From assembly GCA_009777955.1 (NCBI GenBank), contig WRKW01000006.1, positions 1,866-65,865 of the forward strand: a DNA stretch of 64,000 bases, written 5' to 3'. This document shows positions 6,272 to 59,336 of this stretch, in pieces. The notes under the pieces are model-generated. The model ran no database searches. It saw only the letters and a program-made list of their open reading frames with translations, and was not told the origin of the DNA. Source of the DNA: Alphaproteobacteria bacterium (GTDB lineage: Bacteria; Pseudomonadota; Alphaproteobacteria; Rs-D84). Within the stretch, counting starts at the first letter, position 1. Every line of letters starts with the position of its first letter. The position numbers and the translations under genes are program-made.

Positions 6272-6458
6272 CGTGTCATTGCGAGTCACGCCGTCAGGCG
6301 GACGAAGCAATCTTTTATAACGCTTCGTGTCATTGCGAGTGGTCGAAGACCGCGAAGCAATCTTTTCCAACAGGGGAAGTATAATAATTCCATTGCCTGA
6401 AAAGATTGCTTCGTCCGCCTGACGGCGTGACTCGCAATGACATTAAACCGCAATGACA
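6272..6458. repeat. REP-like palindromic array 1 (GTCATTGCGAG..CGAAGCAATC units)
   Basis: Two direct units and one inverted unit flanking a ~30-bp core, directly 3' of the Cys-rich gene. Confidence 0.9.
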
Positions 6459-6575
6459 TTAAAGGCCGAGATCCGCAAACAGCGCCGACCGGAAGTTGGA
6501 AACGGTCTGGGCGGCGTACGCGCAATCGTACGCGCAGCGATACGCGCAAGAGATCGCGCCGAGGTCGCCCCGGAA
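6459..6575 (-). other. DGR-like variable region VR1
   Basis: Differs from the other three copies at codon positions 1-2 of NNC/NNT codons with an invariant TGC GCG scaffold. Confidence 0.75.
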
Positions 6576-6956
6576 AACCCAAGCCGACGAAGCGACACTA
6601 AACCCAGGAATGCTTGTCAGCTTACACCAACAGTTGCTTCCGCTGTCGGCAACAGGGTTACCGATATTGGCATAGCCTCCGCTTGTGCTTGAACACAAAC
6701 TTGTTCCACTGAATTCTGATACATTACTTCCAGTACAGCTTCCTACTTTCCAATCGCCAAGGGATAGGTTGGTGCAATCTTGATCCCAACTTAAACCACC
6801 AGTGCCACTAGCAGGACATTGATTGACACTACTACAACTCGTCGGACTTATGGGTCTTGCCATACACGCAACAGCGGCAATAGACCCATGCAATGGGATT
6901 ATCGTTAATACAGCAAGGATGCTTGTTATCTTTATAGTTTTGTTAAATGTATTCAT
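6459..6956 (-). CDS. Secreted Cys-rich protein, putative DGR target copy 1
   Basis: Signal peptide; CWCK..SSAWVF..CAxxCAxxCA..FRSALF; paralogue of 12480-12971 and 49351-49851. Confidence 0.85.
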   Translation of the reverse strand: MNTFNKTIKITSILAVLTIIPLHGSIAAVACMARPISPTSCSSVNQCPASGTGGLSWDQDCTNLSLGDWKVGSCTGSNVSEFSGTSLCSSTSGGYANIGNPVADSGSNCWCKLTSIPGFSVASSAWVFRGDLGAISCAYRCAYDCAYAAQTVSNFRSALFADLGL

Positions 6957-12135: not shown

Positions 12136-12479
12136 GTGTCATTGCGAGTGGCCAAAGACCGCGAAGCAATCTTTTCCGGCATTCCGTGTCATTGCGAGTG
12201 GTCAAAGACCACGAAGCAATCTTTTCAAATATTTTGTGTCATTGCGAGTGGTCAAAGACCACGAAGCAATCTTTTCAGATATTTTGTGTCATTGCGAGTG
12301 GTCGAAGACCACGAAGCAATCTTTTCAGGCAAGGGAATTATTATACTTCCCCTGTCGGAAACGATTGCTTCGTCCGCCTGACGGCGTGACTCGCAATGAC
12401 ACGAAATGTCGGAAAAGATTGCTTCGTCCGTCACCGCAAGCGGTGACGCGACTCGCAATGACACCAGACTGCAATGACA
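12136..12479. repeat. REP-like palindromic array 2
   Basis: Four direct units with exact 50-bp period (12136, 12186, 12236, 12286), a core, then two inverted units. Confidence 0.92.
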
Positions 12480-12597
12480 TTAAAGGCCGAGACCCGCAAA
12501 CAGCGCCGACCGGAAGACGGAATGGAGCTGGGCGCGGATCGCGCAATCGCCCGCGCAGTCATACGCGCAATAGGACGGATCGCCGTGGCCGTACGCG
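12480..12597 (-). other. DGR-like variable region VR2
   Basis: NNC/NNT codon-restricted variation relative to other copies. Confidence 0.75.
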
Positions 12598-12971
12598 AAA
12601 ACCCAAGCCGACGAAGCGACACTAAACCCAGGAATGCTTGTAAGCTTACACCAACAGTTACTGCCGCTGTCGGCAACAGGATTACCAAAGTTAGGGTAGC
12701 TTCCAGTAGTATTAGAGCATAGGCTCGTGCCACTGAACTCTGATACATTACTTCCAGTACAGCTTCCTACTCTCCAATTCCCAAGGGATAGATTATTACA
12801 ATCACCATCAATACCAAGGGCGGAACAATAGGTCATGCCATTACTTGGACAACTGCTCGGGCTATTAGGTTTCGGTACGCACGCCACAGCGGCAATAGAC
12901 CCATGTAATGGGATTATCGTTAATACAGCAAGGATGCTTGTTAGCTTTATTGTTTTGTTAAATGTATTCAT
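12480..12971 (-). CDS. Secreted Cys-rich protein, putative DGR target copy 2
   Basis: Same architecture as copy 1; C-terminus AYGHGDPSYCAYDCAGDCAIRAQLHSVFRSALF. Confidence 0.85.
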   Translation of the reverse strand: MNTFNKTIKLTSILAVLTIIPLHGSIAAVACVPKPNSPSSCPSNGMTYCSALGIDGDCNNLSLGNWRVGSCTGSNVSEFSGTSLCSNTTGSYPNFGNPVADSGSNCWCKLTSIPGFSVASSAWVFAYGHGDPSYCAYDCAGDCAIRAQLHSVFRSALFAGLGL

Positions 12972-27095: not shown

Positions 27096-27330
27096 GGACG
27101 AAATAATCTTTTCCAACATTTCGTGTCATTGCGAGTGGTCAAAGACCGCGAAGCAATCTTTTCCGGGCATTCCGTGTCATTGCGAGTCACGCCGTCAGGC
27201 GGACGAAGCAATCTTTACAGACGATGGAATTCTTATACTTTCCCTTTTTGGAAAAGATTGCTTCGTCCGTCACCGCAAGCGGTGACGCGACTCGCAATGA
27301 CACCAGACCACAATGACATCAGACCGCCAT
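27096..27330. repeat. REP-like palindromic array 3
   Basis: Degenerate unit, two direct units, core, one inverted unit. Confidence 0.9.
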
Positions 27331-27334
27331 AACA

Positions 27335-27564
27335 TCAAAGGCCGAGAGCCGCAAACAGCGCCGACCGGAAGAAGGAATTGCTCAGGGCGATGCCCACGCA
27401 AGAACCCGCGCAGTAATACGCGCAACCGGACGGATCGCCGTAGTCGACCCCACTGAAAACCCAAGCCAACGAAGCGAAACTAAACCCGGGAATACTTGTT
27501 AGCTTACACCAACAGTTACTGCCACCATCTACAACTGGGTTGCCGATATTGGCATAGCTTCCGC
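27335..27564 (-). pseudogene. 5'-truncated Cys-rich DGR-target copy 3 (VR3 at 27335-27455)
   Basis: GSYANIGNPVVDGGSNCWCKLTSIPGFSFASLAWVFSGVDYGDPSGCAYYCAGSCVGIALSNSFFRSALFAALGL*; homology stops at ~27564, no start or signal peptide. Confidence 0.85.
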
Positions 27565-27620
27565 ACCGCGCACGATACGAATATGTATTCGCGGTCTTTG
27601 CCCGCGAATGGCTTATACAT

Positions 27621-47128: not shown

Positions 47129-47656
47129 ATGAAGCAGGCAAACATCAGGCGGAAACTGGAATCCAAATCTAAAAACAGAATGCCGGAAATAACATACCCG
47201 ATGCTTGAAAAATGCTGGGCAGATTATATTTCTAATAGGCATTTGGAAAAAATAAACCCCGATAGTTTTTTACAGTTCGTCCGTCAAAGACATCCGGGGC
47301 ACAAAGCACTGGGCATGTGGTTCATAAAAACATTTGTCGAAAAAAGAATCGAATTGCTTCGCAAGACAGATCCAAAAATTTTCCGAACCCCCGAACCCGT
47401 CAAAATACCCGAAAAAATTCAACCACAACCCGCACCCGTTTTGTTTGAATTGTCTGCGGAATTTATCGAAGAATGCTGGTCATGGTACAGCAGATATAAA
47501 GATATATATATGCTTACCGGATTCGGCCTTGCACAATATGTAAATAGTGAGGCACGGTTGAAATTCGGCGCGGGAAAATTCACGCTTGCAAACCCGGATC
47601 AGATGGATAGTTTTATAGATAAAAAATGGATGGCGGGAAAAACCAAAACATTATGA
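47129..47656 (+). CDS. Hypothetical protein
   Basis: 175-aa ORF, AAGGA RBS, weak internal duplication (LEKCW/IEECW), stop overlaps miaB start. Confidence 0.6.
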   Translation: MKQANIRRKLESKSKNRMPEITYPMLEKCWADYISNRHLEKINPDSFLQFVRQRHPGHKALGMWFIKTFVEKRIELLRKTDPKIFRTPEPVKIPEKIQPQPAPVLFELSAEFIEECWSWYSRYKDIYMLTGFGLAQYVNSEARLKFGAGKFTLANPDQMDSFIDKKWMAGKTKTL

Positions 47657-48936
47657 AATCATTCTATATAAAGACCTTTGGTTGCCAGATGAATGTTTAT
47701 GACGGGCAACGGATTTCCGGGATGCTGTGCGGGCTGGGCATGATGCCGACAGACGACGTTACGACGGCTGATTTAATAATCCTGAATACCTGTGCCGTGC
47801 GGGAAAAAGCCAGCAATAAAGTTTTTTCGGAATTGGGGCGAATTCGCAATCGCAAAAAGCCGGATGCTCTTTTCGGAATTATCGGATGCGTCGCGCGGGA
47901 AGAAGGCGCGAATTCTTTTCGCCGCATTCCAGAATTGAATTTTGTCCTTGGACCACAATCGTATCACAAGCTGGCCGACATCATAGAAAACCCGGATGCT
48001 AAGTTATTGAATATTGATTTATCCGGATTGGAAAAGTTCGATGCCCTGCCCCCCATGATCGACAACCCGGTTGTCGCATATATACCAATCCAAGAAGGAT
48101 GCAATCACTGTTGTACTTATTGCATAGTGCCATATACCCGCGGAAGGGAATTGTCACGTTCATTTGATGATGTTATAAATGATGTTCATGCGGCAACCGG
48201 TGCCATAGAAATTTGCTTTTTGGGTCAAAATGTAAACGGATATAAAGATAAAGACGGCAAAAACCTGGCCGACCTGATCCAGGCAACGGCAAAGATTGAA
48301 TCAGTCAAACGAATCCGATTCACATCCAGTTATCCGACCGAGATGTCAGACGGGCTTATAAAGCTGTTCGGGCAAGAACCAAAGCTTTTACCCTTTTTAA
48401 ACATGCCTATACAAAGTGGGTCGCCCGATGTATTGACACGAATGAATCGTCCATATTCGTTGGTACTATATATAGATATTATTGAAAAATTGCGGGATGT
48501 ATGCCCGAATATACAAATATCCAGTGATTTTATAATAGGGTTTCCGGGGGAACTTGATTCAGATTTTGAAATGACCTGTGACATAGCGCGACGAATCGGA
48601 TATATAAATTCATACAGTTTTAAATATTCGCCCAGACCGCATACCGCCGCCGCGACAATGGATAATCAGATTCCGGAAAATATAAAAAAACAGCGTCTTA
48701 AAATTCTGGATGATATACTTACGGAAAATAATCGTACATTTAACGAAAGCTGTATCGGACACACCATGCCCTGTTTAATCGAGGGCCGGGACAAGACCGG
48801 GGGACATCTGCTTGCCCGAACGCCATACATGCAGCAAGTGATTATCGCAGCAACTTCGGCGGCGGCGGTTGCACCAATACAAAACATTAAAATAACTTCC
48901 GCTAATAAATGCTCTCTGCGTGGCAAAATAGTTTGA
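47653..48936 (+). CDS. miaB: tRNA-2-methylthio-N6-dimethylallyladenosine synthase
   Basis: TFGCQMNVYD, NTCAVREKA, radical SAM CNHCCTYC, SDFIIGFPGE, YSPRPHT. Confidence 0.93.
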   Translation: MKSFYIKTFGCQMNVYDGQRISGMLCGLGMMPTDDVTTADLIILNTCAVREKASNKVFSELGRIRNRKKPDALFGIIGCVAREEGANSFRRIPELNFVLGPQSYHKLADIIENPDAKLLNIDLSGLEKFDALPPMIDNPVVAYIPIQEGCNHCCTYCIVPYTRGRELSRSFDDVINDVHAATGAIEICFLGQNVNGYKDKDGKNLADLIQATAKIESVKRIRFTSSYPTEMSDGLIKLFGQEPKLLPFLNMPIQSGSPDVLTRMNRPYSLVLYIDIIEKLRDVCPNIQISSDFIIGFPGELDSDFEMTCDIARRIGYINSYSFKYSPRPHTAAATMDNQIPENIKKQRLKILDDILTENNRTFNESCIGHTMPCLIEGRDKTGGHLLARTPYMQQVIIAATSAAAVAPIQNIKITSANKCSLRGKIV

Positions 48937-48947
48937 TTGCTGATTGT

Positions 48948-49350
48948 GTGTCATTGCGAGTCGCGTCATCGCATTAGTGTCATTGCGAGTGGTCGAAGAC
49001 CGCGAAGCAATCTTTTCCAAACATTCCGTGTCATTGCGAGTCGCGGCACCGCTTGCTGTGACGGACGAAGCAATCTTTTCCAAACATTCCGTGTCATTGC
49101 GAGTGGTCAAAGACCGCGAAGCAATCTCTCCAAACATTCCGTGTCATTGCGAGTCGCAGCACCGCAAGCAGTGACGGACGAAGCAATCTTTTCCAGCATT
49201 TCGTGTCATTGCGAGTGGTCGAAGACCGCGAAGCAATCTTTTTCAAGCAGGGAAGTATAATAATTCCATTACCTGAAAAGATTGCTTCGTCCGCCTGACG
49301 GCGTGACTCGCAATGACACCAGACCAGAATGACATCAGACCGTCATAACA
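48948..49350. repeat. REP-like palindromic array 4
   Basis: One truncated plus five direct units alternating short and long hairpin types, core, one inverted unit. Confidence 0.92.
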
Positions 49351-49474
49351 TCAAAGGCCGAGACCCGCAAACAGCGCCGACCGGAAGTCGTCACCGGAAT
49401 CGGACTGGGCGAAGTTCGCGCAATCGTACGCGCAGCGATACGCGCAATTGGACGGAACGCTGCCGTCGAGCACG
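49351..49474 (-). other. DGR-like variable region VR4
   Basis: NNC/NNT-restricted variation plus a two-codon insertion. Confidence 0.75.
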
Positions 49475-49851
49475 AAAACCCAAGCCGACGAAGCGACACT
49501 AAACCCAGGAATGCTTGTTAGCTTACACCAACAGTATCTACCGCTGTCGGCAACAGGGTTACCAAAGTTAAGGTATGTTCCGCTTGTGCTTGAACACAGG
49601 CTTGCGCCACTGAATTCTGATACATTACTTCCGGTACAGTTTGTTAATTTCCAATCCCCAAGGGATAGGTTATTACAATCATTACTATAACCACCCGTAC
49701 CAAGGGCGGAACAATAGGTGTAACTACCGCAACCTGTTGGGCTATTAGGTTTCGGCACACACGCAACAGCGGCAACAGAATCATGTAATGGGATTATCGT
49801 TAATACTGCAAGGATGCTTGTTAGCTTTATTGTTTTGTTAAATGTATTCAT
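49351..49851 (-). CDS. Secreted Cys-rich protein, putative DGR target copy 4
   Basis: Same architecture; C-terminus VLDGSVPSNCAYRCAYDCANFAQSDSGDDFRSALF. Confidence 0.85.
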   Translation of the reverse strand: MNTFNKTIKLTSILAVLTIIPLHDSVAAVACVPKPNSPTGCGSYTYCSALGTGGYSNDCNNLSLGDWKLTNCTGSNVSEFSGASLCSSTSGTYLNFGNPVADSGRYCWCKLTSIPGFSVASSAWVFVLDGSVPSNCAYRCAYDCANFAQSDSGDDFRSALFAGLGL

Positions 49852-49929
49852 GATACTCTCTCCTTTGGGTATATTTATATTATACCATATACCATGACAA
49901 ATGTCAATTTGTATTTAGTCATGTAAAGT
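49852..49929 (-). promoter_or_regulatory. Conserved cassette promoter, copy 4
   Basis: Consensus TTGACA-17nt-TATAAT, AAGGAG. Confidence 0.8.
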
Positions 49930-50074
49930 GAGCGGTTTTTTAACGGCAACTTTGTTGCCGTTAAGAATCTGTCCACGAAATTATTGACTTTTACAATCTC
50001 GACGCATGTATATTGTAACTTGACAAACTGTTTTGCTTGTATTATTCTGTTGCATGAATAGCAAGGCAGAAAAT

Positions 50075-51151
50075 ATGAAAAAACAAACCGAAAAACCAGA
50101 TATTTCGTTAATTATTCCATGTTATAATATAGAAGGACATATAGATGACTGTATGCAGTCTGTTATGTGTCAAAAAAACATAAGAAAATGCGAAGTAATT
50201 CTCGTAAACGACGGCTCTGTTGATTCTACGAAAAAAAAGCTTATGAAATATGTAAAAAGATACCCAAAGATTGTACAGCTGGTTGAAAACAGATATAATC
50301 TTGGCGTATCTGCCGCACGCAATATAGGATTGGAAAAGGCCAAAGGAAATATTATGTTCGTTGACGGCGACGACATGATAGGTGGCAAGCTGGAATCCGG
50401 AATCGACACATATTATTTGGAAAATTTTTTGGATACCTTGAACTCTAATCCGGGTGCCAGCATGGTTGTTGGAAACCTGTTGGTGGTTGATCATGACAAT
50501 ACCAGAATGCTTTGTGCCAAACGATTTAAAAATTTATTCAATCATTCGACAAAGAAAACAATAGATATCAATTCGGCATTGGATTTATTGGACAAAAGGC
50601 TTAGCAGTTGTGCCATCCTTTATCGTGCCGATATCATACAGAAATACAATCTGCGATTTATGCCCCAACTTACTTATTTTGAAGATGCCGATTTTGTAAT
50701 AAGATATGCGTTCAAAGGTGCCCCGAAATACCCAAGCGTTCTGGAAGTTGTTCCGGACTTTTCACATTCGTATTACATATATCGCCGCAGAACCGATTCG
50801 GCCATGACCAAATTGTCTTGCCATTCTGAAAAGTATATGCGCCGATTGGAAAGGACACAGAATAAATTGGCATATTATTCCCGGTTTTTATTGCGATGCA
50901 ATGGATTAATGGGGCCGGATTCCCATATATATAATATAGTTGCGCATCGTTTCAGCCAAACAGTCAAAAACATAAATGTATATAAAAAAGATTCTGATGC
51001 CGTTGCCTATGAATCTTTATCCAGAAAATATATCCCATGGCAGTGTGTGGGATGTACAAAAAACAGATGTATTGCTTGCGGGAACAACGATATATTGCTG
51101 GCGACTGCGGAAAGGTGTAAAAACGATTTGTTGCATGGTCGGCGGCGTTAA
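50075..51151 (+). CDS. Glycosyltransferase family 2
   Basis: ISLIIPCYN, ILVNDGSVD, GVSAARNIGL, MFVDGDD, FEDADF. Confidence 0.88.
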   Translation: MKKQTEKPDISLIIPCYNIEGHIDDCMQSVMCQKNIRKCEVILVNDGSVDSTKKKLMKYVKRYPKIVQLVENRYNLGVSAARNIGLEKAKGNIMFVDGDDMIGGKLESGIDTYYLENFLDTLNSNPGASMVVGNLLVVDHDNTRMLCAKRFKNLFNHSTKKTIDINSALDLLDKRLSSCAILYRADIIQKYNLRFMPQLTYFEDADFVIRYAFKGAPKYPSVLEVVPDFSHSYYIYRRRTDSAMTKLSCHSEKYMRRLERTQNKLAYYSRFLLRCNGLMGPDSHIYNIVAHRFSQTVKNINVYKKDSDAVAYESLSRKYIPWQCVGCTKNRCIACGNNDILLATAERCKNDLLHGRRR

Positions 51152-58745: not shown

Positions 58746-59336
58746 ATGAAAAAGTTTTTAGTGACTTGTTTTGTGATGTGTATGCTGTCAATTCCAGGCC
58801 ACGCAGTGTTTCGATGTGTGGACAATAGAAATCCTGGTAATTGCACTAATATAGGATCCAATCTTTGGAGAGCGCATGGTTGTGCAACACCAGGAGCGTC
58901 GGAATTTTTTGGAACTTTTCGGTGTTCAGATACACCGGGAACTATGGGTACAAAAGGAACCCCAAGTAATACAGGGGGGGCACATTGTTGGTGCAACCTT
59001 ACAAGAACTCCTAATGGCGGATGGGTATATGCGGATGTTTCTGCTGGAACCGCTCCCGCCAATCTGGTAGCGCCTGCACCGCCTGCTTCCGCCGGGAGTT
59101 TTGAAAATTTACCACCAAATGAAGAGTGTAGTACGCTAGTGAATACCGCTAATTCACGATTAGCTGCCGCCAGAACAGAAATAGACAAAATAGAGCCTGC
59201 CATTGCTACGATAAATGGTGCAGATACACTGATCAAGGCACAAGCTGCTGAAATAAATTGTCTGAAAAAATGTTCAGAGGCCTGTGCAAATGCTGCCAGA
59301 AACGCGGGTAGTTTTCGTAACGGATTATGGCAATAA
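58746..59336 (+). CDS. Secreted Cys-rich protein, diverged paralogue of the DGR-target family
   Basis: SEFFGTFRCSDTPG..HCWC..GGWVY..CLKKCSEACANAARNAGSFRNGLW parallels SEFSGTSLCS..CWC..WVF..CAxxCAxxCA..FRSAL. Confidence 0.8.
   Translation: MKKFLVTCFVMCMLSIPGHAVFRCVDNRNPGNCTNIGSNLWRAHGCATPGASEFFGTFRCSDTPGTMGTKGTPSNTGGAHCWCNLTRTPNGGWVYADVSAGTAPANLVAPAPPASAGSFENLPPNEECSTLVNTANSRLAAARTEIDKIEPAIATINGADTLIKAQAAEINCLKKCSEACANAARNAGSFRNGLWQ

Follow-up and report, generated by a model that had tools for sequence, protein, structure and literature searches.

The window analysed here is a stretch of 64,000 nucleotides (G000:C6:1866-65865) of the host genome G000, a 1.02-Mb assembly in 14 contigs that is 98.6% complete. 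A REP array occupies positions 48948..49350 of the window and is made up of a truncated head, five units oriented one way, a 41-nt spacer, one reversed unit and two 16-nt truncated heads. Its distal end is a truncated REP head on the plus strand (48948..48977), located 11 nt past the stop codon of a convergent gene (47626..48936, plus strand) with UPF0004, Radical_SAM and TRAM domains, which we take to be MiaB-like and for which the array doubles as the 3′ end. There follow, also on the plus strand, five tandem units of the form GTCATTGCGAG-(mini-hairpin)-CGAAGCAATC (48979..49238, i.e., C6:50844-51103), each of 34 or 46 nt and with spacers of 16–17 nt. The 41-nt central spacer (49239..49279) separates the inverted units and is the loop of a large imperfect inverted repeat. 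On the minus strand, the unit that comes first from the side of the variable region (VR) has 38 nt (49280..49317), with a perfect inner stem of only 4 bp, a GTCA loop and a folding energy of -9.3 kcal/mol, and the two 16-nt truncated heads (49319..49350, minus strand) abut the stop codon of the next gene and are not an IMH.

That gene (49351..49851, minus strand) is a DGR target coding for a cysteine-rich protein of 166 aa with no Pfam match, and is one of about 28 copies or remnants. In its VR (49351..49499, minus strand), 16/28 adenines of the template repeat (TR) are changed, together with 1/115 of the other bases. The last 37 nt of the VR (49351..49387, minus strand) are adenine-free, GC-rich and the same as the TR up to and including the stop codon, and the actual 3′ integration zone, IMH-like in character, is probably located in this tail. 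On its 5′ side the copied unit has a sharp edge, marked by a promoter with a conserved upstream stretch (49879..49927, minus strand; sigma-70-type, 12/12). A near-perfect promoter of the sigma-70 type is found on nearly every target copy, its -35 box being bracketed by a 6-bp inverted repeat that is possibly an operator.

Three more arrays occur in the window: one of three units and one 16-mer (6275..6458) behind the target gene 6459-6956 (minus strand), one of six units and one 16-mer (12138..12479) behind the target gene 12480-12971 (minus strand), and one of three units and two 16-mers (27125..27334) behind a 5′-truncated target copy at about 27335-27571 (minus strand). A sequence-only reading of the window had placed all the units in four clusters, each starting close behind a VR stop codon, and both points were borne out. 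The window contains 19 GTCATTGCGAG heads, against a chance expectation of 1.09 and with 0/100 shuffles reaching that number, and all 19 fall in clusters at 6275-6441, 12138-12462, 27125-27301 and 48950-49317. The distance from each cluster to the stop codon of its target-family gene (at 6459, 12480, 27335 and 49351, minus strand) is 17 or 33 nt, the gap being filled by one or two 16-mers. The genes ahead of the arrays code for cysteine-rich proteins of 163–166 aa, except that the one at 27335 is the truncated copy. A distant homologue of the middle part of the target, at 58836-59066 (C6:60701-60931), has neither VR nor array.

The GC-rich mini-hairpins and the combination of direct and inverted units described in that reading are also present. 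The general layout of an array consists of 0–3 truncated heads, 1–4 units oriented away from the VR, the 41-nt spacer and up to 5 inverted units. The predicted folding energy of a single unit is -6 to -9 kcal/mol, and that of a 118-nt inverted core -37.7 kcal/mol (z -9.6). A terminator scan of 48800-50100 returned 0 sites, and three weak Rfam matches of the array to microRNA precursors, far under the cut-offs, were discarded as chance.

Considering the whole genome, 128 units forming 38 arrays were found. Sorted by eye, 21 of the arrays are no more than 52 nt away from a VR stop codon, 1 follows a VR remnant of about 20 nt, 5 are directly 5′ of a target promoter (23–83 nt before it), 2 have target-type flanks and are located at contig edges, and 9 are away from targets, so that 29/38 are at one gene family. 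Hence, the proposal that the arrays sit only at the 3′ ends of VRs holds within the window and fails genome-wide, given the 9/38 arrays found elsewhere and the 5/38 that precede target promoters. The enrichment next to VR-bearing genes was nevertheless evident: a head was present up to 52 nt past the stop codon in 13/20 VR ORFs versus 12/846 other ORFs (Fisher p=1.6e-17, a value that is overstated, as the VR ORFs were crudely called and the copies are kin). Two further palindrome families were also enriched near the targets of this genome (11/32 and 7/25), which indicates that target flanks gather repeats in general. One unit (G000:C1:69168-69213) lies within a coding region.

Arrays are present at 21 of the 28 VR 3′ ends of G000. 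The seven VR ends without an array include that of the TR-linked gene; four of the seven retain 8–13 nt of a head, two share the flank of the TR-linked gene and one shows neither feature. Only 2 of the 27 remote VR ends are without a REP head or a remnant of one directly past the stop codon. The array-less copies are scattered over the target tree (7 changes versus a shuffled mean of 6.2). Most arrays in the genome have inverted halves, and growth and shrinkage proceed by whole units and truncated heads. Target remnants reduced to a VR tail plus array were seen at G000:C1:44551, C4:42047, C5:10840, C8:36871 and C3:126394, and in the window at 27335-27571; in them, a deletion running from an upstream repeat to the VR seems to have removed the gene body.

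Concerning the identity of the repeat, its sequence features make it a CGTC/TGTC-type REP that also flanks an Ssn-like GIY-YIG gene. An unpaired CGTC/TGTC head precedes the stem-loop, the outer stem of which is ATTGC/GCAAT. The suspicion that a REP-type repeat is tied to DGR targets was upheld, arrays being present at 21/28 VR ends. It had also been anticipated that a RAYT or GIY-YIG gene would be flanked by the same units, and the GIY-YIG part of this was found: the gene at G000:C1:205816-206109 codes for a single-domain protein of 96 aa (PF01541) and has units of the same family on both sides, their loops being other than those of the target-linked units. The RAYT part was not, with no PF01797 match in the 98.6% complete assembly and no Y1 transposase flanked by the repeat. 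In other genomes, the same repeat lies within 600 nt of 22/80 GIY-YIG homologues (0.05 per 80 in shuffles), and some GTCA-type head is present at 68/80 of the homologue loci. The published SRM search pattern matched 0/128 units of G000, and the exact sequence of the repeat was not found in the available supplements of PMC3733652, so that it is left without a number among the four published consensus families. Two more small GIY-YIG genes of G000 (C7:36918-37136 and C4:48932-49147) each have their own, different GTCA-headed palindrome.

The TR is located at G000:C5:69926-69784, with a shorter copy at C13:156-272 and its 5′ half at C3:43373-43435; each of the three breaks off at its own 3′ point, and behind none of them is there an RT. 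Of the 28 VR 3′ ends, 24 belong to full-length VRs and 4 to remnants. Compared to the TR at C5:69926-69784, the full-length VRs differ at 393/671 adenines and 191/2749 other bases, so that the DGR is real: TR and VRs differ mainly at TR adenines. Plain duplication of already diversified VRs was considered and rejected, since no pair shared derived A-site bases above chance (maximum 10/27, null P=0.46), and it follows that each of the 24 VRs was rewritten separately. A DGR-type RT was absent from the assembly by Pfam search, motif scan and tblastn with the RTs of relatives. The sole RT-like frame (466 aa, G000:C2:199852-201252) stands alone beside a tRNA gene, gives weak matches, below the cut-offs, to antiviral-RT models, and was set aside as being of an unrelated kind. 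The TR copies are at contig ends, and the order in relatives is target, TR, then RT; the RT of G000 is either lost or unassembled. A TR pattern scan of metagenome contigs gave 0 matches.

The TR copies differ from each other at position 28, where T, G and C, but in no case A, occur in the VRs, and it would seem that the template itself has undergone change in the course of time; in another genome of the family, G096, one TR site shows a like change. The position-28 marker clusters on the tree of N-terminal halves (7 changes versus 10.1 after shuffling, 3/200 shuffles; one truncated copy was excluded), a pattern consistent with the TR-linked gene having given rise to batches of copies on separate occasions. 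No array is present behind the TR-linked gene itself (C3:43224), and 28 nt past its stop codon there is a perfect 13-bp stem (-25.6 kcal/mol).

The target domain was found in 108/151 genomes of the family, with 10 or more matches in 29 of them, the matches including distant paralogues and TRs. The repeat, searched with a wide pattern that covers short-loop units, occurs in 63/151 genomes, many with few or no targets. Four relatives with both RT and TR were compared (G125, G096, G164 and G006). In all four, only the TR-linked target matches the TR at every non-A base, and the remote copies show 4 or more non-A mismatches; 20/28 loci of G096 and 18/19 of G164 were covered, two rows without alignment being uncounted. 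To judge from these alignments, the remote copies look like an age series, archive-like, of past alleles that lag behind the template.

Three remote VRs of G096 deserve separate mention, as they have only 1–3 mismatches at 89 non-A positions (the last 12 nt were left out) and share only 1–5 derived A-site bases. The next ORF starts 4–10 nt past their stop codons, and the genome holds 0 units. The likeness of these three copies to the TR-linked gene extends far upstream of the TR boundary. From these sequences it appears that G096 is rewriting remote VRs without any array. In G096 and G164 the dispersed copies end in plain terminators. The repeat is within 200 nt of the target in 0/21 cases in G088, 2/22 in G006 and 7/23 in G125, while in G020 another palindrome is behind 6/10 of the targets examined. 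A DNA pattern based on cysteine spacing was tried as a target finder and dropped, as it matched G020 only.

The genome G059 separates the VR from the gene unit. With 16 of its 17 targets examined, the repeat was found within 200 nt of the VR stop codon in 0/16; in 8/16 it lies at +314 to +329, 20–37 nt past the stop codon of a co-copied second gene of 92 aa. The same slot is taken by another palindrome in one sister unit and by a plain terminator in one. The position of the array thus follows the gene unit, not the VR. G096 (L172-L174), G059 (L340-L351) and G088 belong to one genus, and in them a cysteine-containing, secreted-type ORF of 90–93 aa is co-copied directly downstream of the target.

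The reading that we favour, and hold to be probable though by no means secure, is that the CGTC/TGTC REP arrays, once attached to a founder copy, were co-copied with it and act as a 3′ RNA tail and not as a retrohoming signal. An array would have been acquired at the stop codon of a founder target copy, after which promoter, gene and array would have been copied around the genome as one unit. Arrays would later have changed in length, and those array-less copies that keep 8–13 nt of a head would have lost the array afterwards. Remote VRs would occasionally be refreshed by trans-homing or gene conversion from the TR-linked gene, the process running through the adenine-free, GC-rich tail inside the VR, with array or without it. 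By analogy with E. coli REPs, the array may serve as a 3′ RNA tail, a stabiliser or a weak terminator; a role at the RNA level is reported for one E. coli REP in the available part of 10.64898/2026.03.23.713779. Against a single founder speaks the recurrence of the link in separate lineages (7/23 targets in G125, and 6/10 in G020 with another palindrome), which goes beyond what a single founder event accounts for. The association is striking and probably passive.

An unlikely reading, yet one with several observations on its side, is that the arrays are a handle for dispersal or recombination, single strands nicked by the Ssn-like nuclease, or homology between arrays, helping to copy targets and to exchange segments, by analogy with the dRS3/NIME arrays of Neisseria. 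The sequence-only reading, too, had the repeat possibly mobilising the target cassette. The arrays do bound the 3′ edge of the copied unit, five more precede target promoters, the N-terminal halves of the targets look mosaic, and palindromes recur at the target units of G125, G059 and G020. According to the available parts of the papers, the cut that SsnA makes in ssDNA falls a few nt upstream of the head of its repeat (PMC11893778), and variable surface genes are sites at which NIME arrays are concentrated (PMC1797815). G000 has both the most units (126 in the family-wide count) and the most target matches (28) of the 151 genomes. Against this reading, 10 or more units were found in 6/29 target-rich genomes versus 23/122 others, counted by hand on kin that are not independent, i.e., there is no genome-level association; the repeat is altogether absent from 15 of the 29 target-rich genomes, and the copies of G096 and G164 disperse with plain terminators. 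Moreover, the target-linked units differ in their loops from the nuclease-linked ones and none of the 128 fits the SRM pattern, and no clean empty site was found, congeners carrying a different gene after the radical-SAM gene. A stronger form of this idea, which we regard as rather doubtful, would have a domesticated REP-plus-Ssn system acting as a portable DGR handle: nicking at the head would promote the copy-out of targets or the replacement of VRs in trans, letting one retroelement build up an archive of exported proteins, about 25 in number and each diversified separately, and other lineages would use a different palindrome family in the same position.

The sequence-only reading had regarded the array, or the 16-mer between the stop codon and the first unit, as the IMH or the homing hairpin, and neither assignment was supported. 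As an IMH, the 16-mer was rejected because only 2–6/16 of its bases are identical to the sequence past the stop codon of the TR (21 loci), where no IMH* counterpart exists, and because it is present far from any VR: it is a truncated REP head that also occurs at array ends at C3:29250, C3:92116, C9:22836 and C12:6981 and, in G059, ahead of units behind a non-VR gene. As for the hairpin, the perfect stems near the stop codon reach 7 bp or more in only 4/21 arrays (8 bp in these) and have 5 bp or less in 17/21. A GRNA loop is found in 0/21, a weak criterion outside phages, as the own hairpin of the family has a 3-nt loop. The hairpins of BPP-1 type have GC stems of 7–10 bp and GRNA loops and lie 4–34 bp from the VR, and BPP-1 itself needs a stem of 8–10 bp, a 4-nt loop and a short spacer (PMC3240598, available part). 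TR-linked targets use another, GC-rich hairpin; among the RT-linked targets of relatives, read by eye, a G-run plus GC hairpin was seen in 11/12 and this repeat within 130 nt in 0/12.

It could still be argued that the array is a substitute hairpin, its mini-hairpins or cruciform raising trans-retrohoming where the canonical hairpin has been lost, and we consider this quite improbable. The array does occupy the slot of the canonical hairpin, 0–49 nt past the stop codon, and hairpin sequence may vary among DGRs according to PMC3240598, as far as its available text goes. The six freshest remote VRs (1–2 non-A mismatches) all bear arrays (6/17 versus 0/6, p=0.14), a weak trend with numbers too small to exclude a homing boost by the array. 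Fresh copies differ by 6–18% upstream and by 0–4% at VR non-A sites, which indicates that they were rewritten after divergence, the fresh copies having been picked by those same sites. Sister copies with a common array junction differ at 14–21/27 A sites, so rewriting happened at array-bearing loci without the canonical hairpin. Nevertheless, non-A divergence from the TR is alike with and without array (p=1.0 for all 24 VRs and p=0.57 for the remote copies) and tracks the distance from the TR-linked gene (rho 0.69–0.72, p<3e-4), and arrays are intact behind VRs that are among the oldest (20 and 23 mismatches). The spacing between stop codon and array shifts in 16-nt steps, unlike BPP-1, and such a hairpin repeat is reported in only 34% of DGRs in the available part of PMC5758913. 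In the RT-bearing relatives it is again only the TR-linked gene that matches the TR at every non-A base (4/4), G096 rewrites VRs without arrays, and in G059 the repeat is about 320 nt away. The notion that diversified VRs need arrays is contradicted by near-pristine remote VRs without them, in G000 (C5:14788) as well as in G096. Taken on these sequences, the comparison argues that the REP array is not required for rewriting, and the repeat is likely not the signal that aims it.

An assembly artefact, in which mis-joined repeats or paralogues multiplied the junction of stop codon and array, is hardly credible: many contigs do end within target genes, within arrays or within the TR leader, but the order of units and the flanks differ from one to another of the 21 VR-end arrays, each VR has its own sequence, and like layouts occur in independent genomes.

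The co-copied REP array can be compared with several published systems, as described in the available parts of the papers cited. CGTC-tagged REPs (PMC3733652) share with the G000 repeat the unpaired CGTC/TGTC head, a short stem-loop, the occurrence as dimers, the location near gene 3′ ends and the lack of a linked tyrosine transposase; in G000, however, the stem is interrupted, with an inner hairpin of 4–8 bp, and 29/38 arrays are at one gene family. The Ssn nucleases with their NTS/SRM repeats (PMC11893778) resemble the arrangement of a single-domain GIY-YIG gene (96 aa) between GTCATT-headed hairpins, and their repeats also cluster at particular genes, but the SRM pattern matches 0/128 units and no DGR link is made in the Ssn work available. 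The Neisseria NIME (dRS3) arrays (PMC1797815) are likewise dynamic, mixed with other repeats and placed beside genes of variable exported proteins, whereas in G000 the variation is DGR-made, the array has a fixed place right at the stop codon and the repeat sequence is different.

Features shared with the Bordetella BPP-1 DGR (PMC3240598, PMC5758913) are the A-specific change from TR to VR, a VR tail rich in GC and free of adenine, and a long GC hairpin that follows the TR-linked target at a distance of about 28 nt; that hairpin is distinct from the arrays, and the remote copies are without it. The about 27 remote VR ends of G000 compare with at most 7 non-adjacent targets in the available part of PMC5758913; in that of PMC8144416, remote targets are described as missed by its own survey. 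Thiohalocapsa PB-PSB1 (10.1101/2023.09.22.558884) also has arrays of hairpin repeats at duplicated, partly degenerate DGR loci and targets diversified in trans, but its MITE-like arrays derive from IS elements and stand in the place of RT or TR, in contrast to a GIY-YIG-tied REP at target 3′ ends.

It can be said, then, that the repeat class, the link between repeat and nuclease, and the presence of repeat arrays beside variable genes or DGR loci are already known. What appears to be new is a REP array fixed at the stop codon of 21 DGR VR ends, for which no earlier report was found. A literature search with subscription journals and bioRxiv supplements outside its scope found no paper tying a REP/Ssn repeat to DGR target ends, and no link between the two is drawn in the available part of 10.64898/2026.09.22.753630. 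For the question of how DGRs find and use remote targets, this family is a natural experiment, in which a single target domain is present in as many as 28 dispersed copies in one genome and with 3′ flanks of four kinds (the canonical hairpin, the REP described here, a different palindrome, and plain terminator or none). From the comparison it can be argued that the TR-linked gene alone keeps up with the template, while the remote copies lag like an archive. If it were true that the arrays together with an Ssn-like nuclease speed dispersal or trans-homing, two known systems would be newly joined and the repeat would be a portable targeting tag.

Small nuclease genes were also seen within or beside DGR cassettes of other genomes. 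A GIY-YIG homologue with its own repeats lies between target and RT in G164 (C2:84875-85153), and another, also with its own repeats, is beside an RT in G140 (C3:5992-6267). In G006 (C14, L058), another endonuclease-like gene is located between target and TR, again with repeats of its own.
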